Under the pieces are notes generated by a model. It worked only from the letters and a program-made list of their open reading frames with translations, ran no database searches and had not been told where the DNA came from. Positions 771 to 33,720 of a stretch of DNA of 53,180 nucleotides are shown here, in pieces (position 1 is the stretch's first letter; each line of letters starts with the position of its first letter). Origin of the DNA: a virus. Taxonomy: Duplodnaviria; Caudoviricetes. Location: the IMG/VR virus record IMGVR_UViG_3300012041_000025, positions 1 through 53,180 of that record; one strand, given 5' to 3'. The position numbers were made by a program, and so were the translations under genes.

Positions 771-915
771 AATGCTCCTGCCACCAGCAGTGCATTCACT
801 CGGAAAGCATCCTACGGATGATATCTAAGTACACCGTTGATCAATCGACCAACTGTATAAACGATACCAACTTTCAGATAGCTTTTTCGAGCTTTCCTAA
901 ATTGGAACAACATAG

Positions 916-987
916 AGGCCGGGATGAGATTCGAACTCATGTACCATCATTGCAAAGGACGTACCTGAACCACTCGGACACCCGGCC
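916..987 (-). tRNA. Degenerate tRNA or pseudo-tRNA with Cys-type body; anticodon loop UUUGCAA
   Basis: Acceptor GGCCGGG/CCCGGCC plus U73. T-arm ATGAG-TTCGAAT-CTCAT. D-loop AGTGG. Mismatches in the D and anticodon stems. No encoded CCA. Confidence 0.75.
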
Positions 988-4007: not shown

Positions 4008-4196
4008 AAAAAAGGCAGGAGTAAGAATACCCCCGCCGTCGTACGACTGCTTTTCACAGGAAACCCATTACCGATCACACCAAAGAAACCAGCCATTTCA
4101 CTGTGATCTCAGCCATTCATTTAATAACCTTTAAAAGCTCCCCATCTTTTAAAAAAAGGCAGGAGTGGAAACTCCCGCCGCGAACATTACTGCTTG
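4008..4196 (-). terminator. Two paralogous terminator units ending the late operon
   Basis: GGCGGG..ACTCCTGCC plus T tract at 4014-4037 and 4158-4179, each preceded by AAGCAGT. Confidence 0.65.
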
Positions 4197-4211
4197 CTGA
4201 TGAGAAAAACT

Positions 4212-4766
4212 TTATAAATTCCGATACAAAGCCCGGTAGGCCCACACCTTTTGTGAATAATCCCCACCATGCGTATACCGGTCAACATCATACCCTTTCT
4301 TCAGCGCTTTCAATACATTTCCCTGTCCGCAATTATACGCCGCGGTAATCGATCGATGCCCTGTGACCTCATCCAGCTTCTCTAACCCATACTGTGTTTG
4401 CAAATATTTTCTTTTCTCTTCCAATACCTGGATGGCTTTCAGGCAACACAACAAAGGATCCTTCCAGTCACCACTTCTTATGAACAAAGGATAACTCCCG
4501 ATATCAATCTGCCAATACCCATACCCATGATAAGAAAATTCATCTTCTCCCGGGCGTTTGCCATAATCACCTCTTGCATGATCATGCATCCTGGAGGGGA
4601 TCGCCACCTTATCTTCATGCTTTGAAATCACGGTCCACGTTTCGCGATAGGCCATGGCTGCCAGCCAATCTTCTGTATAAATGACACCAGTGTTTTTTGC
4701 CAATGCCTCCCTGATAACCGGACCCAGCGCTGTTCTATACCACAACATGATTTGCTTCTGTGTCAT
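4212..4766 (-). CDS. Endolysin, g-type lysozyme / GH23-like
   Basis: AMAYRET (catalytic E), GYGYWQID, AAYNCGQGNV, DYSQKV motifs. Confidence 0.85.
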   Translation of the reverse strand: MTQKQIMLWYRTALGPVIREALAKNTGVIYTEDWLAAMAYRETWTVISKHEDKVAIPSRMHDHARGDYGKRPGEDEFSYHGYGYWQIDIGSYPLFIRSGDWKDPLLCCLKAIQVLEEKRKYLQTQYGLEKLDEVTGHRSITAAYNCGQGNVLKALKKGYDVDRYTHGGDYSQKVWAYRALYRNL

Positions 4767-4930
4767 ACGCGTTTGATTTCATCAACCGTGGAAAATTTTT
4801 TAATATCCTCATTGATGGACTTCAACAGTTCCGTCAGCAATGGTTCCTCACATACTTTGATAGCCAATTCCAGTTTAAAAAGAATCATCTTGAGCAGTAA
4901 ATCTTTTCTGATGAAATAGCTGCTGTTCAT
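4763..4930 (-). CDS. Small lysis-cassette protein (55 aa, MNSSYF...)
   Basis: ATGA overlaps with both the spanin stop and the endolysin start. Confidence 0.55.
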   Translation of the reverse strand: MNSSYFIRKDLLLKMILFKLELAIKVCEEPLLTELLKSINEDIKKFSTVDEIKRV

Positions 4931-5511
4931 TTGATAAGCTTTATAAATGTTACCGTGGCAAGGGATAAAAACCGCTGGAGGTATTTCAGTCTGTATTCTC
5001 CAATGGAGCCGATTAAAATACACAGTAAAAACAACCACCAGGGAGGGGCCTTTTTTTTCACCTCCTTTGTATGAACGGATTCTGTTTTGGAAACATTCGC
5101 CCTCGCCTTTTCCAGTTCCACCACCAGGCTGTCCCTGCTATAAAGCGCTTCAATCAACTCGGTGTTTTTTTCGTACAGTGATTGGTTTAACGCCCGGACA
5201 TTTCCTTCGATTGATTTTAGTTTGCCATTGTCGAAGATGATCTTTGTTGACGGCTTTACGCTGGTCGGGCTATCCGGGCAGGGCGTATCATTAAAAACAA
5301 CGCCTGTACTTTCCCACTGCTCGATTTGCCTTTCATAATGCTCAATGGTTTCCTGCAAGGTTTTATGCAAGGCTTCATTCTGCATGATCGCCGCACTGTC
5401 GTAGATCGTTTCCATTTTCACCACCTCTTTCGTTGTCCGGCACCCGAACAATGACAGCAGCATCCACATAACCGGAATAAAGAAAGTGGTCGTTATTTTT
5501 TTCATGATCAA
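4927..5511 (-). CDS. Unimolecular spanin-like lipoprotein
   Basis: Lipobox LFG-C, coiled periplasmic region, C-terminal TM helix WWLFLLCILIGSIG. Confidence 0.75.
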   Translation of the reverse strand: MIMKKITTTFFIPVMWMLLSLFGCRTTKEVVKMETIYDSAAIMQNEALHKTLQETIEHYERQIEQWESTGVVFNDTPCPDSPTSVKPSTKIIFDNGKLKSIEGNVRALNQSLYEKNTELIEALYSRDSLVVELEKARANVSKTESVHTKEVKKKAPPWWLFLLCILIGSIGEYRLKYLQRFLSLATVTFIKLIK

Positions 5512-5537: not shown

Positions 5538-5927
5538 TTAATTTAATTTCGAACCCGAATCGGTTCCTTTCATGGCATCGAGCTCATTTGTTTTTTGGTC
5601 GACAATACTCCTGATCTGCTTTTTTGCCTTACTCAATCCGAGCTGGATAATATAGGATCCGATTGCGCCCATCGTCACAAAAGACACCCGCGCAAAATCT
5701 GAGATGCCGTGATACTGGGCCGCCACTTCATGAAAAATAAGGTACCAGATACCCACGGACAGGAACGATAGCAGAATACTTGGAAAATCCTTGTACACAT
5801 AATCCCGGTACCATTTGAAATTGATGTTGGCTTTTCGTGCATCCACTAATAGCCCATTCAATTTCAAAAGTGAATGGAACAGTACGCCGGCAACGCCGCA
5901 TACAATAAAGGAAAAATCTGTTGTCAT
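5538..5927 (-). CDS. Putative holin (3 TM)
   Basis: Three hydrophobic segments, charged C-terminus, lysis-cassette position. Confidence 0.65.
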   Translation of the reverse strand: MTTDFSFIVCGVAGVLFHSLLKLNGLLVDARKANINFKWYRDYVYKDFPSILLSFLSVGIWYLIFHEVAAQYHGISDFARVSFVTMGAIGSYIIQLGLSKAKKQIRSIVDQKTNELDAMKGTDSGSKLN

Positions 5928-5945
5928 AGTTTTAGGTTTATGTAG

Positions 5946-6188
5946 TTAATCTTTTCTCATTTTGAAAATCGCTTCGATGATGCCTTCCTGGTTGGATAGC
6001 TTTTCATTCATATCCTTCTGATTCGTTTCCAGGGTTTCGATCCGTTTGATTATTTTTTCGTTGGCAGATGCGCCAAGACCTTCAATATGCCGTTCTTTTT
6101 CGTACCGGAAATAATCCTTGATCGCTTTACTGGCGGCTACCAGTGCGGCGGTGGATAAGAATAAGGATGCTATTAATTCTCCGCTCAT
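5946..6188 (-). CDS. Membrane-anchored coiled-coil protein (holin- or antiholin-like)
   Basis: N-terminal hydrophobic helix plus heptads; overlaps the REC stop. Confidence 0.55.
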   Translation of the reverse strand: MSGELIASLFLSTAALVAASKAIKDYFRYEKERHIEGLGASANEKIIKRIETLETNQKDMNEKLSNQEGIIEAIFKMRKD

Positions 6189-6625
6189 TTTATAACATGT
6201 TTTGATTGCTGATATTCGATGAATGGCGCTAACAACTCAATGGCTCGTTTTACGTAGTTCACGCATTTCTCCAGGTCATTTTGCTCATTTTTCTTGATCC
6301 ATTTGTAGATGCCGATATTAATAGCCCTGATCGGCACATCGTCATCTTCAATGGATGACCGGATAATTATTTTACAATAAGGATTTTTCTCCAACAGCTT
6401 TTCGGCGATATCCAATCCATTGCCCGGCTTAATCAGGTAATCCAACACGGCTACATGAACGTCCCGGTGATAGTGATTCCAAAACTCTGCTTCGTTGGTG
6501 AACAACATAAAGTTTTCAATGCCCGAATTTTTGAATACTCTATCTATCACGTTGAGCTCAATCTTGCTATCGTCCAGGATAAACGTGACGATATTCACAT
6601 CGCTGGTATTTTTCATGAACTTCAT
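6185..6625 (-). CDS. Stand-alone response regulator receiver (CheY-like) domain
   Basis: FILDD acidic pocket, VAVLD phospho-Asp, PGNGLD, IIRSS, WIKK. Confidence 0.88.
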   Translation of the reverse strand: MKFMKNTSDVNIVTFILDDSKIELNVIDRVFKNSGIENFMLFTNEAEFWNHYHRDVHVAVLDYLIKPGNGLDIAEKLLEKNPYCKIIIRSSIEDDDVPIRAINIGIYKWIKKNEQNDLEKCVNYVKRAIELLAPFIEYQQSKHVIK

Positions 6626-6676: not shown

Positions 6677-8251
6677 TTAGTTGTATTTTCTGCTCCATAT
6701 CCAGCGCCTTCTGCTGCCAGGTGGCGGTGGTGGCGGTGTTCCTGTTTCCACCGTGATGGATGACAACAAATAAGCGCCGTCAGCGGTTCTTCCCGCTATC
6801 GCTAATGGCAATGGCAACCGGTAATTATTAGGATCGGTAATTTTTACATACAGATCATAAGCACCCTCATTAATGGCCGGCATTGAATAAGCATCAACAA
6901 CCGTACTGTCCCCGGGAAGAAAAAGTTTGGGAGCGAAGTAGCTCACCGTATCCCAAACCGTAACGCCTGCACCTGTCCGTAGAGAATATTCCACCGTCCA
7001 ATTTTCGTAAGTAGGTGCTATGCCGACATTCTCCCAATCCAGATTAATAGTGAGCCCTGCTGCGACTACGGCGGAGCCTCCTGTCAATTCAAACCTGTAA
7101 CCGGCTTTCTTAAAGGCCGCTCTTGCCAGGTCAGCATCTTCTGTGCTCATGACAGTGCCCCAATTCCCGTTACCAAAGGAAGTGGCATGGTAAGTAGTAA
7201 TCTGATTCATCAGGTCACCATAGTAGGGCAAGGGAGGGCCAACGTAAGCAGGAGGCTCACCGGTGACCGGTCCATATTTATATGAATTCACGACGATCGT
7301 TCCGAAAGGATCTGAGCCGAGATAAGTCTCAGTATTGCCAGCTAAAAGACCATCTAAATACAAATCCCTGGCACCCCACTGATCACGCCGCCAACCAAAC
7401 CTTCCCCAAGCGTTAGAGCCGGTGAGTAATTCATAAGCCACTGAAGGATATACCTGGAAAAGATTAATACCTGAGTTTCTTCCATGAAATCCTGCTATCA
7501 TTGCAGACAACGGCCAATCAGGTAACTCATCCCTGTGAATGTCGATTATCTCTAAAAGAGTCGCTTCGGTGGGTTGTCTTCCGGTTGGGTGGCTATCCCA
7601 TGTTGCGTAGCCTCCACTGTGCCATTCATTATAATTCCCGTAACCTCTTATATCTATAGATAAAATAACATCTTCAAAATCTATCACCTCACCATCATGC
7701 GGACCAGCTTCAGCTTCATAGCTGGTTGTTTTTATATGAGCGTATAAAGCAGCGTATAGCGCTCTCAGTCTTGTAAGGTAATTCGTCGAGTTATAATTCG
7801 GTATCCAATCGCCACCGCTTAACCAATCCCTGTTATTCACACTTTCCGCTTGCATTAAATTGTGCAGGTACAAAGGATACACCGACCGGGCGCCGTCATA
7901 AAAGACTTCATTGTAGCCGGTGAACACCGTCATGATACCGAAGGAAAATTTCTGCCCGTTGTCAATGGCTTCCTGCACTAATCCGTCGAAGTACGTCCAG
8001 GTATAAGAACCGAGAGTAGGTCCTTCCAGTTTGTTCCATACAAACCGATAGTACAAGTCCTGCGAAGGAAGGTGGTATTCAGCATGTGGATTTGACACTC
8101 CTTCCGTTCCGTTGTGCCACTGCTCAGCACCCCTCCCAGGAGAAATAATATCAGGATCACCAAACGGTATTTGCGTAAAGGAAAAATTATAGGTCTGCGC
8201 CGTTGCGGTGAAGTAGAATGGTAGTAGTAATATGAAGATCAGTAATCTCAC
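6677..8251 (-). CDS. Secreted glycoside hydrolase-like protein (TIM-barrel plus DUF4832-like C-terminus)
   Basis: Signal peptide ATA|Q. YRFVWNKLE..GSYTW motif. C-terminal GYRFEL..WENVGIAPTY..LFLPG..LPLAIAGR. Confidence 0.7.
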   Translation of the reverse strand: MRLLIFILLLPFYFTATAQTYNFSFTQIPFGDPDIISPGRGAEQWHNGTEGVSNPHAEYHLPSQDLYYRFVWNKLEGPTLGSYTWTYFDGLVQEAIDNGQKFSFGIMTVFTGYNEVFYDGARSVYPLYLHNLMQAESVNNRDWLSGGDWIPNYNSTNYLTRLRALYAALYAHIKTTSYEAEAGPHDGEVIDFEDVILSIDIRGYGNYNEWHSGGYATWDSHPTGRQPTEATLLEIIDIHRDELPDWPLSAMIAGFHGRNSGINLFQVYPSVAYELLTGSNAWGRFGWRRDQWGARDLYLDGLLAGNTETYLGSDPFGTIVVNSYKYGPVTGEPPAYVGPPLPYYGDLMNQITTYHATSFGNGNWGTVMSTEDADLARAAFKKAGYRFELTGGSAVVAAGLTINLDWENVGIAPTYENWTVEYSLRTGAGVTVWDTVSYFAPKLFLPGDSTVVDAYSMPAINEGAYDLYVKITDPNNYRLPLPLAIAGRTADGAYLLSSITVETGTPPPPPPGSRRRWIWSRKYN

Positions 8252-8517
8252 TTTTGTTTTCGTTTTTGTTCTGCCTCAGCAAGAATATCCTGTAATACTT
8301 TCAGGATGGCATCATACCTTGGCTTTTCAGCGATAGTAAATTGCGCCTTGGCGGTTCCGTCTATCCGTTGCAAATAACCAAGCAGCTCACGTTTAGAAAT
8401 AATCTTCATGTCCAGGCTGTCAATCGTTGTGGGGGTTTTTATTTTGTCAGATTTTTTAACCTGTGCATTGCCCGCCACTGAAATAAGAATGGCTATTATA
8501 ATGATCGTTCCTTTCAT
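8248..8517 (-). CDS. Small secreted helical protein (possible fibre chaperone)
   Basis: Signal peptide GNA|Q; follows the fibre gene. Confidence 0.6.
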   Translation of the reverse strand: MKGTIIIIAILISVAGNAQVKKSDKIKTPTTIDSLDMKIISKRELLGYLQRIDGTAKAQFTIAEKPRYDAILKVLQDILAEAEQKRKQK

Positions 8518-8529: not shown

Positions 8530-11205
8530 TTAATTGACGGTCCTGCTTACTTCTCTCCACCGTTGAGTGCCCCCAATCTCACTTAGTAAAAGGGTAATAA
8601 CATCATCTGCTGTTGCAGAAAAATTAGCATTGCCGGCCAGCTCCATTCCTATGTTGGTGCCGCTATTAGCAGTGCCGTCTGTCAGCGTAGCCGTCGAAGT
8701 AAATATCAATGTTACCTGCGATCCTTGCTGCCAAATAAGATTTGAGATCAACGTGATTGCGCTTGTTCCTGTTATTTCAAATACGTCGCCATCGCCACCT
8801 AATGTTATTGCGCCTGCAGCCGAAGCGACGTCTGCACCTTGCTTTCCTCCCAGGACATTTCGCACATTTGCTTTAGATGCCGCAGTATCCGCATTATTAT
8901 TAAATCTTATTAAATCTTTCTGAACGTTCATGAACGTTTCTTCAACAGCGTTGTCCATACCCATTAAATCCACCTGTGATGTGCGGGTAGCATGGTCGAC
9001 CGTTGAAAATTTTGAAACGAACCTGTTTGAAATAAGGCCTTCTGCTCCACCAGTGCCGGCGGTTTCAAGAAAAAAGCCCAGGTCGGCGGCAATGCCATCC
9101 GTTGGCGTCCCAGTTGAGTAGCGGGCAAAATTCATAATTCTGCCTGGACCAGTTGTGGATGATAACGACGTGTTTGCAAACGAAGCGACTGCTCCCTCGC
9201 TACTGGCAGTTCTGGCGAAAAAGTTTGACGTGCCACTATAATTTGTCGTAAGACCAAGCGTAGGTGCGCTTGAAGTATTTAACGCCAAGCCTCCTGTTGC
9301 GGAATTAAAGGAGCCGCTATTTATATAAAAGCCAGTTAAAGAAAGTGGATTTGATCCAAGCGCAATCGTTTCGCTACCCGTCAAGGTACTTCCCGCATCC
9401 AAGACTTGTTGGAATGTTGGTGTGCTCACGCTTGCACTCCATATTAGTTTGCCATCATTATTGACTGTAACATTTCCTGAACCAAAGCCAGATAAAGCCC
9501 CTATATATGTGTCACCGGTAATATCTGCCCGCCCATCCGATACTCCAATGATGGCATTTCCTTCCGCAGAGTATAAGGAAGTAGACAGTGCATCCGCAAC
9601 TATTCTTGTAGTAGTGCCAGGTGACTTTACAGTGAATTCAGATAAATCTATAAATGATAATGAATTATTGTCGCCATCCAAAGTTCTATTGGACGTAAGG
9701 TTTGAATTGCCTGTATAAAGGGTAGTGCCGCCACCGCCACTTGCATTGATCGTTATACTTTCACCATCTACGCCAAATGTTACATTCGTGCCGGCTATCA
9801 ATGATTTTATTTTTGATGTAAACGGATCGACATACACTAATAACGTATCGCCTCCCGTTCCATTCTCAACTGATCTTAACGACGAAGAATCAAACCTTCT
9901 GAAACTCAAGGCCGATAATAAACCAGGATACGTAGCATCGGCGTATTGTTGATAGAAGATATTACCACTAACCCCAAAACCGAAAGCAGTTTTCGCCACG
10001 CCATCGATCGCTCCCTGTGTGTGCCAGGCCGTGAAACTTCTTAAAGCTCCCGTTCCATCAATGTACTGTGACGTGCTGCCAGCTCCTGTCACCGTGTGCG
10101 TCCCATTATTGGTAACGGTAGCCGGTGACGTTTGAAATGCCGACGGCATGGTCAGCGTATAGCTAAACTCACTGGTACCACCGCCGCCTGTTGGCACAAA
10201 GCCAGATATCAAATCAATATCATCCAAATACGCACCAGGATGAATAGCTGCACCAGCACTATTCGTATACCTTATCCGTACCCTGTCAATATTATAATTG
10301 GAAAAAACAAAGTCCGAAGTCGGTACATCGATCGCCTGGTAGACCAGCGAATTCCTGTTCAGGTTAATCGGTCGCTCATTCGATACCTGCAGGCTGCCAT
10401 TGAAAAAAGTAACCCGTACAAAAGATGTTATTGGCAGTATCGCTTTGAGTTGAATAGAAATGGAGATGGCCTGCCAGCTGAGCATATTCAGCGATCCCAA
10501 TGGCCTTGTCAAATAAATCAAATCCCCCTGGTTGATATTGGTCCAATTAATGGACTTACTACCGATCCATACATTGGAAGTATTGTCAGCATCAACGGTG
10601 GCGCCGCTTTGCGTGACGGTCCATTCTATGTTCTCATTATAGATTACTTCCTGCCCCAGGGCTGGAGTGGTGGACCCTGCCGGAATATCAATCACCGTCA
10701 GCTTAATTTGGTCACCGTCCAACTGTGGTTCTGCCGCTGATGGTGCCGCCACACCTTGCATTACATGCACCGCCCCGTCTGTCGCCAAATAAATGACATC
10801 TTTTCGCGGATTATCGGGATCACTGGCCGAAAGCGTGATCGAAGCAGAATCGCTGTTATAAATAAGATTAGCGATGCGGTAAACGGCTTCCTGTACATAG
10901 AAATGAAAGCCATACCCTTTATAGGATACCGATCCTTTATCCAGTACCTTATCGACCAGGCTTGAGCCCGTACCCGTACCGGATACTGGCTGCCAATACC
11001 CTAATTTTTGATACAGTACAAAATTGACAATGGCAATGGATGAATCAGGAGCCGACGCCAGCGTATCCTTCGGAATGCCTAATGACTTACCCACTTTGAG
11101 GTGGTTGGCAAAATCGTAGTTGCTGTAATTAATATTATATTTCGGGACCTGTGCCGATGCCAGGAATGATACCAACACTCCCAGGACAACAAATATTTTT
11201 TTCAT
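8530..11205 (-). CDS. Tail-fibre-like protein with Sec signal peptide
   Basis: MKKIFVVLGVLVSFLASA|Q. G/S/T-rich. PTFQQVLDAG motif. Fibre-type C-terminus ending WREVSR. Confidence 0.65.
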   Translation of the reverse strand: MKKIFVVLGVLVSFLASAQVPKYNINYSNYDFANHLKVGKSLGIPKDTLASAPDSSIAIVNFVLYQKLGYWQPVSGTGTGSSLVDKVLDKGSVSYKGYGFHFYVQEAVYRIANLIYNSDSASITLSASDPDNPRKDVIYLATDGAVHVMQGVAAPSAAEPQLDGDQIKLTVIDIPAGSTTPALGQEVIYNENIEWTVTQSGATVDADNTSNVWIGSKSINWTNINQGDLIYLTRPLGSLNMLSWQAISISIQLKAILPITSFVRVTFFNGSLQVSNERPINLNRNSLVYQAIDVPTSDFVFSNYNIDRVRIRYTNSAGAAIHPGAYLDDIDLISGFVPTGGGGTSEFSYTLTMPSAFQTSPATVTNNGTHTVTGAGSTSQYIDGTGALRSFTAWHTQGAIDGVAKTAFGFGVSGNIFYQQYADATYPGLLSALSFRRFDSSSLRSVENGTGGDTLLVYVDPFTSKIKSLIAGTNVTFGVDGESITINASGGGGTTLYTGNSNLTSNRTLDGDNNSLSFIDLSEFTVKSPGTTTRIVADALSTSLYSAEGNAIIGVSDGRADITGDTYIGALSGFGSGNVTVNNDGKLIWSASVSTPTFQQVLDAGSTLTGSETIALGSNPLSLTGFYINSGSFNSATGGLALNTSSAPTLGLTTNYSGTSNFFARTASSEGAVASFANTSLSSTTGPGRIMNFARYSTGTPTDGIAADLGFFLETAGTGGAEGLISNRFVSKFSTVDHATRTSQVDLMGMDNAVEETFMNVQKDLIRFNNNADTAASKANVRNVLGGKQGADVASAAGAITLGGDGDVFEITGTSAITLISNLIWQQGSQVTLIFTSTATLTDGTANSGTNIGMELAGNANFSATADDVITLLLSEIGGTQRWREVSRTVN

Positions 11206-11215: not shown

Positions 11216-12559
11216 TTATTTTTTCATGACCCAGTAGACCCCGATATTATCCATCCTTGTTTCTGCGCCGCCAGCTGCCACGGTCAGGTGTCCACTTTGC
11301 GGTGTCGGCCCATTATCATTATTTAGGTAAAAAGTATTTTGCTGGCTACCGCCGTCAGAGTCGTTCGTATAATGCCCCAAGTCGTGCTGGTGGGCTGCAA
11401 ACTCATGGCGCTGATAGCCGCCGGGTTTATTGAGGTGCCGCTCCGTGTCGCTACCGGATTCAGAGACCAGCCCACGAAGGGATTGACCCATCAGGTCAGG
11501 CAGGCGGAAAGTGGTGCTGCCATCACCGGGCGTGAAACAACCGCGATAAGGAAAAGCCACGGTACGTCCAGCCACTGTAACGGATGCAGTAGCCCAGGTG
11601 GCTTCACTCACCAGGGAGAAACCAAGGTTGGCTACTTTCTCCCAGATACGTGGATAATCAGCACGGTTCACCAATTGCCCTTTACAGAGCACTTCATCAA
11701 AACCTACTTCATAACTGGCGACGGGTTGGCAAAGACCACGGTAGTGTTTGTAAAAATCATTGATGATATAAAGGCCGTCATCATCGCGGAAAAGCCAGCA
11801 GACTTCTCCTGGATGCATGTGGATCGTGTTCCTCGATACATTATTGAAATAAATGTATTGCCCGCCGGTGGTCGTGATGGCTGTCGGCTTGGTATTGTTG
11901 ATGCTGGTTTCAATTGGGATCAGCGCATTCACCGGTATATCATCCACATTGGGGATGGTAATGGTGATGGCTGTGGCATCGCTCCTGACCTGGATGATCT
12001 TATTCATATCCAGCACCGGATCCAGGGTAGTGTTGGTGGTGACTAATTTTTTCCCACCAATAAAGGATCCTGCGACGGTAGATGGACCGGAGGTGCCGGA
12101 ACCGATCAGGGCAAATATGCTCAGCTTGAAACGTTCATTTTCATTTAGCACATCGCCAGCCTGGAGTAATTTAAAACCCCCGGCATCCAGGATCTCGTAC
12201 TCAGCAATATCCACATTGCTGTTATCATCCAGTAACGCGATCAGGGGAAAACCACCTCTTTCCAGGGTAAAATCTTTACCAGCTAAGGAAGGAATATAAG
12301 CGGTGTCGGTGTCGGCGGCGGCATTGGGCACCACATAGATCATCTCGCCGCCATAAGATACCGGTGCATGGGAGCCGCTGCCACCACCGGTGTTGAAAAA
12401 AGTGTTGAGGAGGGATAGCGGAACCTTCTTTGTCAGGTTTTCACTCGCTATATAAATAGGTACCTGATCTGCCAGCTCGAGCGGCAGATCCACAGTCAAC
12501 GGTGACAATTCCGGAATCCTGGCGGTCTCTATGGACATGCCGGCAATGAGAGTACCCAT
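11216..12559 (-). CDS. Tail fibre protein with tail-collar domain
   Basis: CKGQLVNRADYP..GDGSTTFRLPDLMG..ETRMDNIG motifs. Confidence 0.85.
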   Translation of the reverse strand: MGTLIAGMSIETARIPELSPLTVDLPLELADQVPIYIASENLTKKVPLSLLNTFFNTGGGSGSHAPVSYGGEMIYVVPNAAADTDTAYIPSLAGKDFTLERGGFPLIALLDDNSNVDIAEYEILDAGGFKLLQAGDVLNENERFKLSIFALIGSGTSGPSTVAGSFIGGKKLVTTNTTLDPVLDMNKIIQVRSDATAITITIPNVDDIPVNALIPIETSINNTKPTAITTTGGQYIYFNNVSRNTIHMHPGEVCWLFRDDDGLYIINDFYKHYRGLCQPVASYEVGFDEVLCKGQLVNRADYPRIWEKVANLGFSLVSEATWATASVTVAGRTVAFPYRGCFTPGDGSTTFRLPDLMGQSLRGLVSESGSDTERHLNKPGGYQRHEFAAHQHDLGHYTNDSDGGSQQNTFYLNNDNGPTPQSGHLTVAAGGAETRMDNIGVYWVMKK

Positions 12560-12631: not shown

Positions 12632-14185
12632 TCAAATCTTGCGATAGATCTTACCGGTGGCATCTTCCATCAGCACTTCGGAAAAGCCGGTGTAGGTATT
12701 GGTCGTAGGCATATTCTGAAACACCAGGGTACCCACCACATTATTATTCAGGATGCTGTTATTGACCAGTTTGTTATCGATATCCCGCACATCGCGGTCG
12801 GTAGAGCTCTGGGCATTGATGATCCGCTGTACCGTGCCGGCAGTTACGGTGTCGGAGATCTCCACCTGCAGCTGGAATTCATTGACGATATTTCGGATGA
12901 CACTGATCACCCGGATCTTCCGTTGCAGCTCCAGCTCCTGGTCAAGGATCCACACCAGGTCGCCGATCTTCAAGAGCTTACTATAGCGGCGAACGAATAC
13001 GGGATCGAGCACAATATTATATGCCAGCTGCGGCTCACTGAGCTGGTTCAGCAGCGTGTTGGCCCGGACGGCTAAGTCTGCCTCAGCCGCATCAATATAA
13101 CTTTGCGGCAAATAAATATCGACCAGGACATATTCATCACCGATGGCTGGTCGGATCAGGGCGCTGGGCAGATCCAGCACCTTCTCCTCGGCATTTTTCT
13201 GTATCCGGAATATTTTGGTGCCATTATTGAACGACTCGACTTCAAACTCGTAGCCGGCTAACTGGCCGGTATTAAAGGCCACTTTCGCTACGAGCCCGGG
13301 TAACAGGTAATCGTTAACGTTGAAATCAATATCAGCATCGGTAAAAACAAATGGATCGCCCCCGTTCACGGCGGTCACTATGCCGGTGCGGTGCGGAAAA
13401 ATATCTTCGAATATTTCCGTGTGCTCGATCACACCATAGGCCGCTGTATTATGTTCCAGGAAATAAACAGCAGGCAGCTTTAAACGACGGCTGGTGACCA
13501 GGTACGCCTCCGGCAGGTTTTTCTCGCTTCCAAACGCATAGAGCCGGGTAACAATGCTGCTGTTGTTTAGGGTTTGCCGGGTGATCTCGTACAGGCCTTT
13601 GTTGCGGCCATGTTTGAAGGTATAGCCGGTATCATTGCTGCGTTTGGTCAAATGGATGGTCTTGCCTTCGATCCAGAATTCCGTTTCAAATTCTTCTGCC
13701 AGGCGGCTTAATGCGTTGTAACAATTTTCCCGTGAAAAGGTGATGTTCTTGTATTCGGATAAGATCACTTGTCCTTTGATCCATCCACTGCTGACGCGGT
13801 TGATATTGGCAAGGACCAGGTTTATAAAATCATCCGCATTGCCCATCAGTGAAAAGTCAGATTCACGAAGGGTATTATCCGCTCCGAGGAAAAGAAATTG
13901 CGCTTTGGCAAGGTCATATCCCCGTGCTTCCATCACCAGGGTATAGCGCCACAGGAAACGGCTAACTTTTGTCACCAGCGGTAGTCGGTTGATGATGTAT
14001 GTTTCCCCAAAAACAGAACAGTAGTCGTTTATTTTAAACTGGATGTAATGGTTTTCCTCAAAGGCGATGTTCAGCAGGTTATCGCCCATGATCCGCTTCA
14101 CCTGGGTGCTGTTGTTGTCCGGCTTAATGGTGACAAAAGCAGTTGGCGCCGATGCTACATCCCGCAATATATCTATTGTATTCAT
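12632..14185 (-). CDS. Baseplate hub / Tal-like tail protein
   Basis: IVTRLYAFGSEKNL, YGVIE, IGDLV motifs; follows Dit. Confidence 0.8.
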   Translation of the reverse strand: MNTIDILRDVASAPTAFVTIKPDNNSTQVKRIMGDNLLNIAFEENHYIQFKINDYCSVFGETYIINRLPLVTKVSRFLWRYTLVMEARGYDLAKAQFLFLGADNTLRESDFSLMGNADDFINLVLANINRVSSGWIKGQVILSEYKNITFSRENCYNALSRLAEEFETEFWIEGKTIHLTKRSNDTGYTFKHGRNKGLYEITRQTLNNSSIVTRLYAFGSEKNLPEAYLVTSRRLKLPAVYFLEHNTAAYGVIEHTEIFEDIFPHRTGIVTAVNGGDPFVFTDADIDFNVNDYLLPGLVAKVAFNTGQLAGYEFEVESFNNGTKIFRIQKNAEEKVLDLPSALIRPAIGDEYVLVDIYLPQSYIDAAEADLAVRANTLLNQLSEPQLAYNIVLDPVFVRRYSKLLKIGDLVWILDQELELQRKIRVISVIRNIVNEFQLQVEISDTVTAGTVQRIINAQSSTDRDVRDIDNKLVNNSILNNNVVGTLVFQNMPTTNTYTGFSEVLMEDATGKIYRKI

Positions 14186-20096: not shown

Positions 20097-23000
20097 TTAT
20101 ATAATTTTTATTCCTTTCACTTCATACCAGAACTGCAATTTTTCCAATAACATGTTCATCCGGACGATCTGTGTACCGGTATTCACCTGGATCATATTCA
20201 TCGTGGTTAGTTGCACCCTGGCGATATTCAATTGTTCAAGGGCAGTGATCCTTAGACCACCAAACTGACCAGCGAGCAGATCCGCTTGTGTCTCTGTTAT
20301 TCCTTTGATAGCGCCGGTAAGGTTTCGACCCTGCCCGCCTGATCCAGCTGCCAGGTCAATCCCGCTGATCTGCTGCAATTGGTCAAACTGTGCCTGCGCA
20401 TTGGTGATAATGGAATTGTATAACGATTGCAGCTGGTCGATTTCACTGCTGGTTAGTTGGTCACCTGATTGAGCAGCGCCGGCAAACTCTTCAAAGAAAG
20501 CCTGCAAAGGACCTTCGAGGAAACGGAGTTTTAGCGACTCGATCATGGCATTGCGCATCAGGTCCTTGAAGTTGTCGGCGAAATCGGATGCGCTGCGCTT
20601 GCCGCTGGCAAAACCATCAGCAATGCTGTCCACAATTGAATCAGCCGTGGTACCGGTGAAGATCTCCTTCGCGGCTTCCGCATTTTCCGCCAGCAAGCCA
20701 TCGATGTCGGCGCCTTCCTGTTTTATTTTCCGCAGGATTTCAAACAACTCCTTGGCGCGACCGGTCAGCTTTCCTTCCGAGAATAGTTTTTCCATTTCAT
20801 CAAAGGATAGTCCATTCAGCGTTTCGCGGATCTCCACGGTCTTCGTCTTGCGACCAATACCTAATACGCCACCTGATTTTTTTGTCACCAGGTCGGCCAC
20901 AAAGGTTTCCTGGTTCAGCTGCGATAGTATTTGATCATACTGGCTGAGGATGGCATTTTTCTGTTCCTCCAGTAATCTTTTTTCTGACTGCAGTCCCTCC
21001 AGCTTGAGCTCATTGAGTTTGGCCTGCTCCCGCTGACGGTTGCGGTATTCCTGCGTGATATCAATTTCTCCTGATAATATCCGCTGGTTAAAGTCCAGGA
21101 TCTCCTGCTCAGCCTGTTTGCGACTTTCTTTAGCCTTCTTACCGATGGAGAAAAGTCCGACGATAGCACTGACGGCACTACCAATACCACCGATGATATT
21201 ACCGGAAGCGAACTGTGCAATAGCACCCGCCGCATTGGCGGCGACACCAGTAATATCTGACAAGGTTTGCAGCGTATCGGCTAACCCATCATTAAGTCCT
21301 TCTAAAGCTCCGGCGAGATTACCAAAGATGCCACTGACAGAAGCCAGGTCCCCCGCTAATTGATTATATTTTTTTGCCGTGGCATTGGTAGAGTCGAGTA
21401 AGCCATTATACTGATCGATGACACCCTGGATATCGGCTTTCATCTGTGGCGTCAGCGAGGTATCATCCTTCAGTTGCTTTTGAAAATCTTTTATCTGCTG
21501 TTTAATGGTTTCCCGGGAGAAGCCTAAAATATCCTGGTTAAGTTTTTTATAGAGGGCCGATTTGCGGATGAGGTCATTATTTAATTGATCCAGCTCTTCC
21601 TGGCGGCCCTCTTTCAATAATCTTTTCCGCTCAGCAACCTCTTCAACTGTTAGTTCTTTGGACAATGTTTTTTCTAGCCGATCATATTTCTCATTGACGG
21701 CTCCCTTCTGCTGGTTGAAGGTTGACGTGGCGGTCAACAGCTCAATAAATTGCCGCTTTTGTTCCTCGATATTTTCCTCGTATTTTTTCTTATTGTAAGC
21801 ATTCACCTGGTCGGTGATGGCTTTGAACTTCTCTATCTCCCCAACATTGGCGATACCAAATTGTATCTTCGGCAGCAGGCGTAAACCTTCCTCCTGCAGT
21901 AATTTCAGGAAGGACTCATAGCCTTTCGTCTGCTCCGCAAATAACTCCTTCGTTTTTTCAATGCCCACCTGTTTTTTGGCTTCTTCGAATTGTTCAAAAA
22001 CCCGTTGCTTATCTTCCAGGCTTTTTTTAAACTTCTCGGCATCGGCCCTTAGCGTCGCATTGTCCAATTCGGTGGTACGGGCCTGGTTTAATTCAACGAT
22101 GGCAACCTGGCCAATTTGCTGCACCTGCTTTTTAGGGTTGGTCTTATTAAAGGCCTGCACCTTTTTATTATACTCATCAATGTTATCGATCAACGCATCA
22201 TACCGCTCATTGATCTTATCGAGTTCCGTTTGTTCTTTGGTGCGATTGGTAACCGCAGCATCTTTGACGCGATCGGCGATCTGCTCCAGCAGGTCCTTCC
22301 TTTTTTCCAGCAATGCCAGCGCTTTGTTATCCTCGGCGTTCTGGGCACGTGTTTCAGCTTTCGTTTCGCCAACAATTCGTTTACGTTCCTCTTCCAGTTT
22401 ATTGATGCTCGCCTGGTATTGCTGGTATTGCACGGAAGAGGTAGAAAAATTGCGTTGCTTTTCTTTTTCCGCTTTGATCTCCTCATCAATTACCGCCAGG
22501 GTGCGGAGCTTCGCTTCCTGTTTGACGGTTTCCGCTTTCACCTGCACGGATCCTAATTCTTCACTGACTTTTTTTTGCGCTTCCAAGTCGGCGAGCAATA
22601 CTTTCTGATCCGTGCCGGATTCAACGATGGAAAACTGGAGCAAACCGATACCTTCCTTATCGCCTGATTTTTTTAGATCCGATAGCTTTTTATTGAGCTC
22701 CTCCTGTTTTTTAATTTTCCGGTCGATGGACTTTTGGATCTCCTGCTCATTCTTTATGCTGGCCTGCAGCGCTTCTTTATTCGCTTCCAGGGCATACTGG
22801 TTTCGTAACGCAGTAAGATATCCCTTTACACGTTCTGTGATATTTTCATAGGCGATCGTTTTAGCATTCAGTCCTTCGACGATCTTGGGATCAATTTCTT
22901 TGAGCTTATTGTAAATGTTGATCCTTTCCTCTTCAGAAAGGTTAGCATTCTTTAACGCTTCGACATAAGGCCGGATCTTCGCTTCCTGGTCGGCCATCGA

Positions 23001-24158
23001 ATCAGCGACTTTTTCCTGCGCATCAGCCAGTAGTTCGGCTTTTGATTTTGCCAGCGTGGCTTGTTTTCCGAATACGGCCAGCGCACTGACCAGTAACCCT
23101 ATGCCAGCCGCTACAGCCACCGCCGGATTAGCCAGCATGGTTCTGTTTAACAAGGCCTGCGCCCCCTGGGCTATCTGCAATGCCTTTGCTTTTAAGAAAA
23201 GCGCAACCGTCAAACCCTGCTCTCTTGCCGCCGAGATGGCACTCAATGCGTTGGTGGCAATAATCGCAGCGCGATAAGATCCATACGTGATCACCAGGAC
23301 TTTCAGGATATCGATGATCGTCTGGTAATTGTCGACAAGGAACTTCACTGAGCTGATGGCGTCGGCAAATATGCCTTCTCCACTCCTGCCAATTTCGTTC
23401 AGCATCTGGCTAAAGGCGTCCCGCAGGTTACTGATCTGGCCCAAAAGTGTTTTGCTTTGCGCTTCCATCAAGCCACCGAATTGAGATCCTTCGGCGGTCA
23501 AGTTCTTAAAGACCTGTTCGATCTCCGGGAATCCTACTTTGCCGGCTTCAATAAAATCCTGGACTCTATCAGTTGTGACGTCAAAGATTTTAGCCAACTC
23601 CTGGTAGATAGGAATACCGCGTTGTGCAAACTGCCTAACGTCCACGGTCATCGCACGTCCCTGCGTTTTGATAGTCCCAAACAGGTAAGCGATCTCACCC
23701 AAAGGTGCGCCAATCCCGGAGCTGATATCACCCAGGCTTCGTAGCGTGTCTTTTACTTTATCGGAGGAAATGCCAAAGGCGAGGAGTTGTTTGGTAGCGG
23801 CCGCAACATCCTTTAATTCAAAAGGAGTCGTCGCTGCAAACTCGGTGATCTCTGCCAGCAGCTGATCAGCTTTTTGCTTGCTGCCCAGCATGGTTTCGAA
23901 CGCGACTTCCAGTTGCTGGAATTCACCTCTGACCCGAACAATATCGGACACAAAGTTGGTGGCGGCCGCAAAGCTGGCATACGCCGCTATGGCCGTGGCG
24001 GATTTGCGAACCAGGCTATCAATAGCGCCGGCTTCTTTATTGGCTGTTTCAGTAAGACCGGCCAGCTGGCGCTCGATGCTGCCAATGGCCGCATTGAACT
24101 GCGACGCATTGATGACTGCATCAAACTGGAGCGCTCCCCCATTTACACTTACTGCCAT
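20097..24158 (-). CDS. Tape measure protein
   Basis: 1353 aa helical; FETMLGS..FAATTPF tape-measure domain; hydrophobic segments. Confidence 0.95.
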   Translation of the reverse strand: MAVSVNGGALQFDAVINASQFNAAIGSIERQLAGLTETANKEAGAIDSLVRKSATAIAAYASFAAATNFVSDIVRVRGEFQQLEVAFETMLGSKQKADQLLAEITEFAATTPFELKDVAAATKQLLAFGISSDKVKDTLRSLGDISSGIGAPLGEIAYLFGTIKTQGRAMTVDVRQFAQRGIPIYQELAKIFDVTTDRVQDFIEAGKVGFPEIEQVFKNLTAEGSQFGGLMEAQSKTLLGQISNLRDAFSQMLNEIGRSGEGIFADAISSVKFLVDNYQTIIDILKVLVITYGSYRAAIIATNALSAISAAREQGLTVALFLKAKALQIAQGAQALLNRTMLANPAVAVAAGIGLLVSALAVFGKQATLAKSKAELLADAQEKVADSMADQEAKIRPYVEALKNANLSEEERINIYNKLKEIDPKIVEGLNAKTIAYENITERVKGYLTALRNQYALEANKEALQASIKNEQEIQKSIDRKIKKQEELNKKLSDLKKSGDKEGIGLLQFSIVESGTDQKVLLADLEAQKKVSEELGSVQVKAETVKQEAKLRTLAVIDEEIKAEKEKQRNFSTSSVQYQQYQASINKLEEERKRIVGETKAETRAQNAEDNKALALLEKRKDLLEQIADRVKDAAVTNRTKEQTELDKINERYDALIDNIDEYNKKVQAFNKTNPKKQVQQIGQVAIVELNQARTTELDNATLRADAEKFKKSLEDKQRVFEQFEEAKKQVGIEKTKELFAEQTKGYESFLKLLQEEGLRLLPKIQFGIANVGEIEKFKAITDQVNAYNKKKYEENIEEQKRQFIELLTATSTFNQQKGAVNEKYDRLEKTLSKELTVEEVAERKRLLKEGRQEELDQLNNDLIRKSALYKKLNQDILGFSRETIKQQIKDFQKQLKDDTSLTPQMKADIQGVIDQYNGLLDSTNATAKKYNQLAGDLASVSGIFGNLAGALEGLNDGLADTLQTLSDITGVAANAAGAIAQFASGNIIGGIGSAVSAIVGLFSIGKKAKESRKQAEQEILDFNQRILSGEIDITQEYRNRQREQAKLNELKLEGLQSEKRLLEEQKNAILSQYDQILSQLNQETFVADLVTKKSGGVLGIGRKTKTVEIRETLNGLSFDEMEKLFSEGKLTGRAKELFEILRKIKQEGADIDGLLAENAEAAKEIFTGTTADSIVDSIADGFASGKRSASDFADNFKDLMRNAMIESLKLRFLEGPLQAFFEEFAGAAQSGDQLTSSEIDQLQSLYNSIITNAQAQFDQLQQISGIDLAAGSGGQGRNLTGAIKGITETQADLLAGQFGGLRITALEQLNIARVQLTTMNMIQVNTGTQIVRMNMLLEKLQFWYEVKGIKII

Positions 24159-27254: not shown

Positions 27255-28346
27255 TTAAGAGAATGCCAGCGTCGTACTCAACAGGTAGATCCTGTCGATC
27301 GCTTCCAGGGCCGGGAAAGCATTGATCTCACCTTTCGTCCACTCACCAAAGGGATCGTTCTCGCTCCATTTGCTCAGCAATACCCTTTGGAACGAACCAT
27401 ATTTCACCTGGTCAACCGGGCGGATCTGTTCGATTAAAATACAGTTCTTGATCGTTCCCAACTGACCATCAGGAATGAAGGCCACGTTGGCATCTGCCCA
27501 CGGCTTGATGGTCGTGATCACCCCATCTTTTTCAATCCCGATCGTTTCATCTACGATTTCAATGATGGGATATTTATTGGCCGCCAGCAAAGTGTTGATA
27601 CTATCCAGGGTCACCAGGATATTACCAGCTTGCTTAAAGCCGAGATAGTTGCTCAACAGGGTTTTCACCTCGGTGATCAACTGGAATTGCATGAATTTGG
27701 TGCGGCTCATCAGCATTTTACTGAACGTGATGCCACGGGCCTGGCCAGCTGAAACGATACCAGGAATATCTACCGTAATGGGATTGGCGGCTATGTTGGA
27801 CCAGGCGGTGCCAGCATTTACCTTATTGCCGGATGGCATCAGCAGGTCGATATCGTCAGCTACCACGCCATCAGGGTTATTGGTGGTGTTGATGGTGATC
27901 TTACCAGTGGAAAGACCTTCCAAACACATAAAGTCAATCCGTTTCATCGGTGCGTCGCCGCATTTCTTCATATCGTCGAACATCAGGTCCAGCAGCTGCT
28001 GTTTCTTGGTGGCTTCATCGACGCCAGTGATTGCCTGCAGCGCCATGAAGTCATAGTAGTCACTGGCGGTCATCTTGAATTTTTCGCTGATGGCAGGAAT
28101 CTCACCACTGAGTTTTTCCAACCCGATACGCGCACGCAATGGCGCGGGACCATCACGATCGACGACAGAAGCGGCTGCTTCCACGCGGCTCTTACCGATC
28201 ACACTCACATAGGTGAGGGTGGTTTGGGTGATACCCCAGCGAAAATATTTCTGGAACCAGGTGGGGGCAAACCGGTCCAGGCTGTTGTCTATGACTACCT
28301 GTAAACGGTCGGCATAGGTTCCGAAGATGGATTTTACCTTGCTCAT
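27255..28346 (-). CDS. Major capsid protein (lambda gpE-like family)
   Basis: 363 aa; follows scaffold and decoration genes. Confidence 0.88.
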   Translation of the reverse strand: MSKVKSIFGTYADRLQVVIDNSLDRFAPTWFQKYFRWGITQTTLTYVSVIGKSRVEAAASVVDRDGPAPLRARIGLEKLSGEIPAISEKFKMTASDYYDFMALQAITGVDEATKKQQLLDLMFDDMKKCGDAPMKRIDFMCLEGLSTGKITINTTNNPDGVVADDIDLLMPSGNKVNAGTAWSNIAANPITVDIPGIVSAGQARGITFSKMLMSRTKFMQFQLITEVKTLLSNYLGFKQAGNILVTLDSINTLLAANKYPIIEIVDETIGIEKDGVITTIKPWADANVAFIPDGQLGTIKNCILIEQIRPVDQVKYGSFQRVLLSKWSENDPFGEWTKGEINAFPALEAIDRIYLLSTTLAFS

Positions 28347-30165: not shown

Positions 30166-30348
30166 ATGATATCAGGAGAAAAAAACCCATTCGCAAACCC
30201 TGACGGATCACCTCAAAAAGGCAAAGAATTTGAATACCTTGATTGGTCAATACAAAGGGATAAAGAACGTATATCTAAACTATCAACCGAGGGAAAAAAA
30301 AGGGAAATCAAAGCCAGTAATCATTTGAAAGACAAAATGGAATCTTAG
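30166..30348 (+). CDS. 60-aa protein convergent with MuF-ART (candidate immunity protein)
   Basis: TACTTTTG -7 box at 30154-30161; its stop overlaps the ART stop. Confidence 0.55.
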   Translation: MISGEKNPFANPDGSPQKGKEFEYLDWSIQRDKERISKLSTEGKKREIKASNHLKDKMES

Positions 30349-32334: not shown

Positions 32335-33720
32335 TTATGGTAATTCAAGGGGTAATGCGGCGCCTTCATCCTCGATGCGCTGCATTTCCTGTTCGGCATT
32401 GTTGACCAACGGATTTAAACTGACGGCTGTCTCCGTACTCATGATGGCTTTGCCACCACCGGTGGCACTGACCAACATATCGACCATTTCTCCTTCGTTC
32501 TTCGGTAGGAAGTATTCGAATTTGGGTGATATCTCCATTGCAGTAGCTTTCTCCAGACTTATGTTAATGGTAGCCATCGCCGCTTTAATAAAATTGATGC
32601 GGCGCTGTATCGTTTTGCCAAAGGTTTCTTCTTTGTCGGCCGCTTTGAGGTGTGGCGCCAGGAATAACATCTTTAAAGCAATGCCGGAGAATGTTCCCAA
32701 CCCTTTCATGGTTTCGATGCTGATATCAGGTGTATCCGTCATGTCATAAATCAGCGATCGCAGGTTATTAAACTCCAATTCCATGCTTTTGGGACTCTGG
32801 TCCCAGCTCATGTACTCCGCCGTGGCACCATCCTTCAGCTTGATCACTTTACCACTCTCCCCTTTACTGGCAAACCCTTCAATTTCACCGTTGACTTTCA
32901 CCATCGGACTGCAGAAATAATCGTTGGTATCGGAGTGATTGCTGAGGGTTAGCTCAAAGCGTTCCACTAAAGTTTGCACATCGGCCCACTCGGGTTTGGG
33001 TTGGTAGTAATACATCACGGGTATCTTGCCGATCATATTCGTTTCAGTGATGACATCCCAACTGGCGACGTTCTTCACGGCTTTGTAAGTAGTGGCTTCT
33101 GTATAGATATCAAAATGCTCTTCCGTCTTATTATCGACTTTCAACGTATAGCCCCGGGCAAACGCGATCATGTCACCGCTGTTGTTGAAAACTGGATACA
33201 GGCTATCGCCGAGTGAATTGGCTAATATTTTCATCCGCAAGCGAAATCGCTTGCCGGCATTGGGCGTATTATTCCAGTAGACAGTATCCGCTTCTTCCGT
33301 ATACCACACTTCTGCCACTTCGGTTTCACTCATCATCATTTTTGCCAGCCCTTTGCTTTCATAATTGAGCTTATTGCTGTCCCAGGTCTTTTGGATCACC
33401 GCCAGCAGATCCTTTTGTTGTTGGTCGGCCGGTGTCGCTGATAGCTTTATGGGATTGCCACATAGGAAGGCTGCCGCTAGTGCAACGATCTTTTTCTGCA
33501 GCGGCAGTGCTAGCCTGGTCACGGGTACCAACCTGGTTCCGGCTTCATCGGTCGTGATTGTTTTATCCGGACGCAGCCCTTTGTCCATGATGGCATGGTC
33601 CACTGGTTGGTATTGTTTCAGGAAATCATTGACTGCGGTGGCATTGGTTTTCGAAGCCTGGATCTTCTGCCGAAGCTTGTCAAAATCGGGCAGGTAGCTT
33701 TGTAAATCGGTTAATTCCAT
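32335..33720 (-). CDS. Portal protein, SPP1 gp6-like
   Basis: GKIPV, TPDIS..SGIALK, LPKN, S.ETAV motifs. Confidence 0.92.
   Translation of the reverse strand: MELTDLQSYLPDFDKLRQKIQASKTNATAVNDFLKQYQPVDHAIMDKGLRPDKTITTDEAGTRLVPVTRLALPLQKKIVALAAAFLCGNPIKLSATPADQQQKDLLAVIQKTWDSNKLNYESKGLAKMMMSETEVAEVWYTEEADTVYWNNTPNAGKRFRLRMKILANSLGDSLYPVFNNSGDMIAFARGYTLKVDNKTEEHFDIYTEATTYKAVKNVASWDVITETNMIGKIPVMYYYQPKPEWADVQTLVERFELTLSNHSDTNDYFCSPMVKVNGEIEGFASKGESGKVIKLKDGATAEYMSWDQSPKSMELEFNNLRSLIYDMTDTPDISIETMKGLGTFSGIALKMLFLAPHLKAADKEETFGKTIQRRINFIKAAMATINISLEKATAMEISPKFEYFLPKNEGEMVDMLVSATGGGKAIMSTETAVSLNPLVNNAEQEMQRIEDEGAALPLELP

Follow-up and report, generated by a model that had tools for sequence, protein, structure and literature searches.

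Why would a bacteriophage carry, among its lysis genes, a response-regulator receiver (REC) domain that has neither an output domain nor a kinase of its own? This question is raised by the IMG/VR virus record IMGVR_UViG_3300012041_000025, whose whole length of 53,180 bp (hereafter the window) was analyzed. A REC protein of 146 amino acids (aa) is encoded there on the minus strand at positions 6185-6625, and its gene overlaps that of an 80-aa membrane coiled-coil protein (5946-6188, minus strand), hereafter the partner, located just before a putative holin gene. An initial annotation, made from the letters of the window, had noticed this orphan receiver in the lysis cassette and had proposed that the phage may time lysis with it, via the partner, by reading the histidine-kinase or acetyl-phosphate status of its host, or may use it as a phosphate sink to blunt envelope-stress signaling. 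Our analysis confirms the observation, with a stronger conservation than a single sequence could show, and the comparison of sequences partly supports the interpretation. As judged from gene order in eight loci, the REC and partner genes are a conserved two-gene, probably late module of lysis cassettes, present in phages that seem distantly related.

The REC protein matches Pfam PF00072 over residues 15-120 (E = 8.4e-11; 42.5 bits for a cut-off of 30.2). A phmmer search of solved structures retrieved 13 response regulators at E ≤ 0.01, and residues D18/D19, D62, S90 and K112 align on the columns that hold the acidic pair, the phospho-accepting Asp, the Ser/Thr and the Lys of these regulators. 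We take the CheY equivalents to be D12, D13, D57, T87 and K109, W109 presumably corresponding to Y106. All six residues (D18, D19, D62, S90, W109 and K112) are invariant in a four-sequence alignment of close relatives. The AlphaFold2 model built from this alignment (mean predicted local distance difference test score of 81; predicted template modeling score of 0.79) has the (beta-alpha)5 fold, with five strands alternating with five helices, and its last helix is unusually long (residues 117-145). The REC domain and one helix account for the whole protein, without a second domain. Moreover, the ratio of non-synonymous to synonymous substitution rates (dN/dS) between the window and its closest relative, locus L002, is 0.05, which indicates purifying selection. 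Judged by the residues that it keeps, the protein is therefore a stand-alone, chemically intact receiver domain, and the initial annotation was right both about its phosphorylation residues and about the lack of an output domain. None of the named NCBIfam regulator families was reached, all 16 matches being far below the cut-offs. The protein also matches four PHROGs of unknown function with longer profiles (227-1,030 positions), so that receiver domains in phages are not new per se.

This receiver-only layout is the one of single-domain response regulators such as CheY, Spo0F, DivK and CpdR, with which the REC protein shares the (beta-alpha)5 fold, the acidic pair, the phospho-Asp, the Ser/Thr, the aromatic switch residue and the Lys. 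Such regulators exert their effect through the proteins that they bind, not through DNA. Unlike them, the REC protein of the window is encoded by a phage without a kinase or Hpt, has a long extra C-terminal helix and is encoded next to a membrane coiled-coil protein within a lysis cassette. It also differs by the residue that follows the conserved Lys, which is Asn, Asp, Gly or Ser in its family; in receiver domains, this Lys is commonly followed by Pro.

Close relatives of the REC protein are rare. A word search among 5.8 billion proteins gave three clusters only (90, 63 and 55% identity), and none was found in GenBank phages by tblastn, in IMG/VR with peptide patterns or in GTDB genomes with the alignment of close relatives. 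Likewise, a single family member (P0008) used as a query retrieved nothing from GenBank phages or IMG/VR. A wider family was reached with a profile of the four close sequences, compared without any length limit with 1.84 billion representatives: 1,097 matches at E ≤ 1e-3, 105 clusters at E ≤ 1e-10 and one at E ≤ 1e-30. Lengths of 130-185 aa are found in nearly all of the best 150 matches, and 148 of the 152 family representatives do not exceed 185 aa. The family alignment has 159 rows, i.e. 152 proteins and the REC proteins of seven loci, with few duplicates (for instance, P0026 corresponds to the protein of L014, and P0017 to that of L015 minus its first two residues). The phospho-Asp (position 62) is present in all rows, the Lys (position 112) in 158 and the Ser/Thr (position 90) in 157. 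An acidic residue is found at position 18 in 157 rows and at position 19 in 156 (Asp in 154), and an aromatic residue at position 109 in 146. The residues at D+2 and T+2 vary widely across the family. From this alignment, these proteins constitute a distinct, previously unnamed family of chemically intact, stand-alone receivers. Among 401 genomes of the phylum of the metagenome-assembled genome (MAG) that carries locus L006, only this MAG has a family member at E ≤ 1e-18; these genomes are small and may not belong to Bacteroidota.

The partner of the window has a single hydrophobic segment (residues 3-19), rich in Ala and Ser, followed by a positively charged flank and then by a charged helical or coiled-coil region. 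Its C-terminus (EGIIEAIFKM) is conserved in alignments of partners, and several loci have a membrane segment in which small residues abound. Its dN/dS (0.065, window versus L002) also denotes purifying selection. The plus strand reads TCAT at 6185-6188, i.e. the REC stop codon and the partner start codon overlap by four nucleotides (nt) as ATGA on the minus strand, as had been annotated initially, and the two genes are probably translationally coupled through this junction. The partner matches no family of Pfam, PHROG, NCBIfam or PADLOC. In the protein-cluster search, it retrieved only its own cluster, and nothing was found in IMG/VR. Its ESM Atlas neighbors are unnamed small viral clusters only, with scores of 0.91 that are attainable by chance. 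In all eight partners, the 15 residues that follow the segment carry 3-5 Lys/Arg (net charge of +1 to +3) and the short N-terminal flank that precedes it carries 0-2 (net charge of -2 to +1). According to the positive-inside rule, these flank charges predict an N-out/C-in topology, which would put the coiled coil in the cytoplasm, within reach of a soluble REC protein.

Besides the window, seven loci carry the pair. L002 and L003 come from a metagenome scan, L010, L011, L014 and L015 from IMG/VR and L006 from a contig of the MAG; the last five were found with pattern scans derived from three narrow sub-alignments of the family. In all eight loci, the gene immediately after REC overlaps it and encodes a small coiled-coil protein with an N-terminal anchor, and this with REC identities that range from 90% down to 28%. 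The REC proteins of L006, L010 and L011 also exceed the PF00072 cut-off. The junction is ATGA in L002 and L003, and the coordinates of the open reading frames (ORFs) give overlaps of 1-32 nt in L006, L010, L011, L014 and L015. Seven of the eight partners are 68-94 aa long. In an alignment of the partners from L002, L003, L010, L011 and the window, identities range from 24 to 93% and a C-terminal motif is shared. Small membrane-protein genes lie beside the pair in every locus; the pair is located upstream of them or, in L011, between them. Furthermore, a peptidoglycan hydrolase is encoded downstream of the pair in all seven loci that are long enough to judge. These hydrolases are of at least four kinds (SLT-like, GH19, Peptidase_M15_3 and Peptidase_M15_4), to which an NlpC/CHAP-like protein matching a 'tail lysozyme' PHROG has to be added. 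The linkage of the pair to lysis genes, whose lack would have counted against the initial annotation, is thus conserved in these loci.

In the window, the pair is followed on the minus strand by a gene encoding a small membrane protein of 129 aa (5538-5927), with two or three hydrophobic segments and a charged C-terminal tail. Its size, membrane segments, charged tail and position are the only grounds on which we call it holin-like. The initial annotation had placed the partner gene directly before the holin gene: the position and the architecture agree with this, and the part of the claim that names a holin finds no family match. The next gene (4927-5505, minus strand) encodes a 192-aa protein with a lipoprotein-type signal (Cys22) and a C-terminal membrane segment; both Cys22 and the C-terminal hydrophobic stretch are conserved in its L003 homologue (47% identity). 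This architecture is probably that of a unimolecular spanin, for which gp11 of T1 is a precedent. Since neither protein matches a Pfam, PHROG or NCBIfam family, 'holin-like' and 'unimolecular-spanin-like' are architectural readings. A weak match obtained in the IMG/VR scan with the spanin-like alignment (L004) appeared unrelated when its ORFs were read and was dropped.

Further downstream, a 55-aa ORF (4763-4930, minus strand), which is part of a longer 91-aa ORF, lies between the spanin-like gene and a gene encoding a 184-aa SLT-like lysozyme or transglycosylase (4212-4766, minus strand), with ATGA overlaps at both of its ends. The cassette has therefore three ATGA junctions, including the one between REC and partner. 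The 184-aa protein matches Pfam SLT weakly (E = 0.0094, below the cut-off) and nothing meaningful was found in a comparison with PDB sequences. Its feature and structure neighbors in the ESM Atlas are mostly viral clusters with SLT and/or PG_binding_1 domains (template modeling score up to 0.92), and it is likely to be the endolysin. Two strong terminator-like hairpins followed by T-runs are found downstream on the minus strand (4179-4158, nine-pair stem; 4037-4014, ten-pair stem). No comparably strong minus-strand terminator was found between 8700 and 4212, and the Bacteroidetes -7 motif TAnnTTTG is absent from the minus strand between 36985 and 3537. Because of this tight packing, the lack of an internal terminator and of a -7 motif, and the two closing terminators, the REC gene is probably transcribed on a long late transcript together with structural and lysis genes.

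The other loci show how variable the surroundings of the pair are. L002 (1,184 bp; REC 90% identical to that of the window) comprises the REC gene, the ATGA junction, an 80-aa gene and a gene for a 124-aa membrane protein. In L003 (7,762 bp; REC 63% identical), a 536-aa repetitive protein is encoded before the pair, whose partner also has 80 aa, and a 121-aa membrane protein after it. Then come a homologue of the lipoprotein-plus-anchor protein, two further ORFs and a GH19 protein (Pfam, 27.8 bits versus a cut-off of 25.5; PHROG 'endolysin', E = 1.2e-34). Just past this lysis cassette, an IS1595-family (ISXO2-like) transposase is encoded on the minus strand (6856-7572).

L006, which belongs to a prophage, is the most divergent locus. 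Its REC protein (161 aa) is 28% identical to that of the window, and the start of the gene for its 178-aa anchor-coiled-coil partner overlaps the REC stop. Two membrane proteins (102 and 127 aa), a lipoprotein, a Peptidase_M15_3 endolysin and a Bacteroidetes-type integrase are encoded downstream, and beta-helix tailspike-like proteins followed by a 105-aa ORF upstream. This ORF (4657-4974, plus strand) overlaps the REC start and resembles by eye a LuxR/GerE-type helix-turn-helix, with no Pfam match. If the helix-turn-helix is real, this could be a split NarL-type regulator arrangement, specific to that locus.

The four IMG/VR loci are in complete or nearly complete records. L010 (99% complete) encodes a 165-aa REC protein and a 94-aa anchor-coiled-coil partner (11-nt overlap), preceded by two very large ORFs. 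They are followed by a 128-aa homologue of the 129-aa protein of the window (5735-6121), by spanin-like ORFs and by the 185-aa NlpC/CHAP-like protein that matches the 'tail lysozyme' PHROG. In L011 (100% complete, with terminal repeats), the REC protein has 171 aa and the partner 94 aa (32-nt overlap). Upstream are ORFs of 930 and 438 aa, a 138-aa homologue of the 129-aa protein (4111-4527) and a coiled-coil ORF; downstream are a 215-aa protein anchored at both ends and a Peptidase_M15_4 protein. The pair of this phage is therefore located between the holin-like gene and the spanin-like and endolysin genes. Both homologues of the 129-aa protein share a D.KTN..D motif with it. L014 (100% complete) has a 147-aa REC protein and a 94-aa partner (17-nt overlap), flanked upstream by a 1,501-aa ORF and downstream by a 94-aa membrane protein and a 179-aa lysozyme-like protein. 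L015 (100% complete) has a 150-aa REC protein and a 68-aa partner (26-nt overlap), with a 1,180-aa ORF upstream, and a 135-aa membrane protein and a GH19 endolysin (PHROG, E = 3e-43) downstream.

Some other genes of these cassettes deserve mention. In proteins encoded by L010 (6486-7247, 253 aa) and L014 (6033-6752, 239 aa), a membrane segment at the N-terminus is combined with a long coiled coil and with a beta-like C-terminus rich in Gly and Tyr; these proteins have no family match and may span the envelope as another, one-piece type of lysis protein. Just upstream of endolysins of different types, L003 (4384-4911) and L010 (7767-8264) share a conserved ORF (165-175 aa) that belongs to no known family and is absent from the cassette of the window.

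The small membrane proteins that follow the pair in L002 and L003 have no detectable similarity to the 129-aa protein of the window (E = 0.07), and the endolysin of L003 belongs to another family than that of the window. The terminase and capsid proteins of the window had no match in the four other phage records or in the MAG, in searches run without a positive control, which suggests that the phage of the window is distant from the other phages that carry the pair. Since the holin-like families differ at REC identities as high as 90% and 63%, and since the terminase and capsid proteins are unmatched, these comparisons argue that the pair is kept while its holin-like and endolysin neighbors are exchanged by cassette mosaicism.

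Where would the phosphoryl group come from? The statement of the initial annotation that the window encodes no kinase holds: six-frame searches of its 53,180 bp detected no HATPase_c, HisKA or Hpt domain, and they detected exactly one receiver domain. HATPase_c is also absent from the L010, L011, L014 and L015 records, i.e. from all five near-complete phage records once the window is counted, and L010 and L011 have one PF00072 domain each. Any phosphoryl donor would therefore be of host origin.

Taken together, these features suggest that lysis by these phages receives an input from host phosphorylation signaling, and the pair could well be a phospho-switchable, membrane-tethered regulator of holin triggering, a reading that we put forward tentatively. 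The partner would insert N-out/C-in, with its coiled coil facing the cytoplasm, and the REC protein would dock on this coiled coil, probably via its long C-terminal helix. Acetyl phosphate or a histidine kinase of the host would phosphorylate D62, and the phosphorylation state of the REC protein would alter the action of the membrane segment of the partner on the holin-like protein. The partner would act like an antiholin or a holin co-factor, holding back or assisting the holin-like protein. Holin triggering, and hence lysis time, would then respond to a physiological signal of the host. The extension of this scheme to the phage family as a whole (at least about 100 receiver clusters), in which a membrane-tethered REC protein phosphorylated by the host would switch its partner between holding back and releasing the holin, is conceivable and has to be worded with still more reserve.

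Several points weigh against this regulatory role. The 80-, 129- and 192-aa proteins of the window match no holin, antiholin or spanin family of Pfam, PHROG or NCBIfam. The topology of the partner is drawn from the positive-inside rule only. The L011 partner, one of the six partners scanned, weakly matches PHROG 739 'Rz-like spanin' (E = 3.6e-5); should this match hold, the coiled coil would lie in the periplasm, beyond the reach of the REC protein. No natural fusion of REC and partner was found among the nine longer family members inspected. Besides, all seven other loci were found by short peptide patterns and six of them come from viral or metagenome collections, which makes a small and biased sample, and the gene context is known for eight loci and not for the other clusters of the family (about 100). 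Finally, the position of a gene in a late operon can reflect timing and not function.

The foremost alternative, which we nevertheless regard as unlikely, is the following: the pair would be a membrane-tethered phosphate sink or decoy, the REC protein being anchored near host histidine kinases and draining or blocking phosphotransfer late in infection, for instance that of envelope-stress systems, and its location in the lysis cassette would only set the timing. Such a role would make use of the intact and conserved phospho-acceptor site, of the membrane partner encoded in all eight loci and of the probable expression from the late transcript, and it agrees with the lack of a kinase in the five phage records. 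However, a sink does not need a dedicated anchor that is kept among lysis genes while the holin-like and endolysin neighbors change family, and no host target is known. Moreover, the residues at D+2 and T+2 are linked to the dephosphorylation rate of receivers, and their wide variation gives no uniform sign of a fast turnover.

The partner might also be a structural lysis protein, i.e. a holin subunit or a short Rz-like i-spanin, the REC protein being an adaptor that controls how stable it is or how it assembles, for example by delivering it to a host protease, in the way that the single-domain regulator CpdR primes ClpXP. Its small size, single membrane segment and charged C-terminus fit this idea, as do the spanin match of the L011 partner and the L006 partner, which has the size of an i-spanin (178 aa) and is followed two genes later by a lipoprotein gene. 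Yet we consider it improbable: the other partners scanned did not match the spanin PHROG, the flank charges predict a cytoplasmic coiled coil in all eight loci, and most cassettes have a separate spanin-like gene (lipoprotein with a C-terminal anchor in the window and L003, protein with N- and C-terminal anchors in L011). What the partners have in common with the Rz-like i-spanins of PHROG 739 is the coiled coil after an N-terminal membrane segment and the location of the gene among lysis genes. The partners differ from them by their mostly much shorter length, by the opposite predicted topology and by the presence of these spanin-like genes. As for the pairing of Rz with a lipoprotein, the window does have a lipoprotein gene, but its product carries its own C-terminal anchor.

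The phage of the window being temperate, as suggested by its integrase gene and the adjacent tRNA gene described below, the pair could serve the lysogen instead, as a moron involved in superinfection exclusion or in altered host signaling. The junction between tail-fiber and lysis genes is indeed a common site for accessory genes. This is nonetheless very improbable, as the probable late co-transcription argues against an independently expressed moron: no Bacteroidetes -7 motif or terminator surrounds the pair, which is on the late-gene strand, tightly packed and joined by an ATGA overlap, and the pair of L011 is inside the lysis block. No PADLOC defense family was matched by the REC proteins of the window, L006 and L010 or by the partners of the window and L006, the L010 partner alone giving two weak coiled-coil-type matches; a role of the pair as a defense system was therefore rejected. 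As for a receiver fold used merely as a phosphorylation-independent binding scaffold for the partner, of which there are examples in other systems and with which the lack of a phage-encoded kinase would agree, it is highly doubtful, since the active-site residues are usually lost in receivers that function unphosphorylated, whereas those of this family are almost invariant, and the REC gene is under strong purifying selection between the window and L002.

If the pair regulates holin triggering, its nearest system-level analogy may be found in the antiholins of T4, of which RI is membrane-associated and periplasmic and RIII cytoplasmic; T4 senses superinfection via the periplasmic RI, and S107 of lambda is another separately encoded antiholin (as given in the available text of PMC6116005). 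As in T4, separate small genes would provide one membrane-associated and one cytoplasmic component that tune holin triggering according to a signal. There is no sequence relation with RI, RIII or S107, and the cytoplasmic component is here a phospho-acceptor domain, which is absent from these proteins as they are described in that text (PMC6116005). Any antiholin activity of the pair is thus hypothetical.

Another small protein invites comparison. In PBSX, the gene that immediately precedes the one of the holin XhlB encodes XhlA, a small membrane-associated coiled-coil protein with a single membrane segment, and lysis requires both proteins. The partner is likewise a small one-segment coiled-coil protein encoded directly before a holin-type gene. 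Unlike XhlA, it does not match the Pfam XhlA family and has its membrane segment at the opposite end, and XhlA has no receiver partner.

A phage-encoded response regulator without its kinase has been described in the Alteromonas phage R8W. According to the available part of PMC8228385, this PhoB-like regulator is thought to exploit the two-component signaling of the host; it is annotated as DNA-binding, classed among the auxiliary metabolic genes and associated with phosphate limitation. Unlike it, the REC protein of the window has no output domain and is encoded in a lysis cassette. A full-text search of the literature outside subscription journals retrieved no publication that places a receiver domain in the lysis cassette of a phage or describes an antiholin controlled by phosphorylation.

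Lysis timing sets the burst size and the fitness of a phage. Besides the clock of the holin itself, a few antiholins are known to control this timing, and a single signal is well understood, namely superinfection, which causes lysis inhibition in T4 (PMC6116005, as far as the available text goes). If the REC-partner pair is a regulator of holin triggering, it would be a new route by which phages read the state of their host, i.e. kinase activity or acetyl-phosphate level, at lysis, and the first phosphorylation-gated holin clock, in which the envelope or metabolic state of the host sets the time of burst. If the pair is a phosphate sink, host signaling would be silenced at lysis instead. In addition, the module is compact (two genes, about 680 bp), genetically tractable and recurs in phages in which no match to the packaging and head genes of the window was found.

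The record itself is linear and 95% complete according to CheckV. PHROG scans place nearly all of its genes on the minus strand, among which those encoding an integrase (1384-2592), a tail fiber (11216-12559), a tape measure protein (20097-24158), a major head protein (27255-28346), a portal protein (32335-33720) and a large terminase (33792-35399); replication and recombination genes were also identified. A tRNA-Ala (TGC) gene (915-987, minus strand) lies about 400 bp from the integrase gene. A tail protein (12632-14185) matched 73 GenBank phage records, nearly all of them Bacteroidota phages: Bacteroides (28), Riemerella (14), Porphyromonas (12), Elizabethkingia (1) and Phocaeicola (1), the remaining ones being labeled 'Bacteriophage sp.' (14), 'Phage' (1), Shigella (1) and 'Dulem' (1). 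No relative of the large terminase above 30% identity was found. From its gene content, these tail-protein matches and the terminase search, the record is that of a temperate siphovirus-like phage of a Bacteroidota-type host, without a close cultured relative.

The tRNA-Ala gene is a probable attachment site, and the left end of the record may consist of host DNA or of the attachment region. Between the tail-fiber region and the REC gene, a 524-aa protein (6677-8251, minus strand) combines a signal peptide at its N-terminus with a DUF4832 domain (E = 2e-10, above the Pfam cut-off), and may be a secreted or virion-associated glycan-degrading enzyme. Upstream of its gene are an 89-aa ORF with a signal peptide (8248-8517) and an 891-aa ORF without family match (8530-11205). 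A 585-aa head-morphogenesis-type protein (30345-32102, minus strand) matches the PHROG 'Bxa ADP-ribosyl transferase' (E = 1.4e-74, best stretch at residues 194-345), and its C-terminal part matches a head maturation protease PHROG. Finally, three separate proteins with ParB-like/nuclease domains are encoded on the minus strand of this one phage genome (35934-36500, 45059-45814 and 45811-48015).

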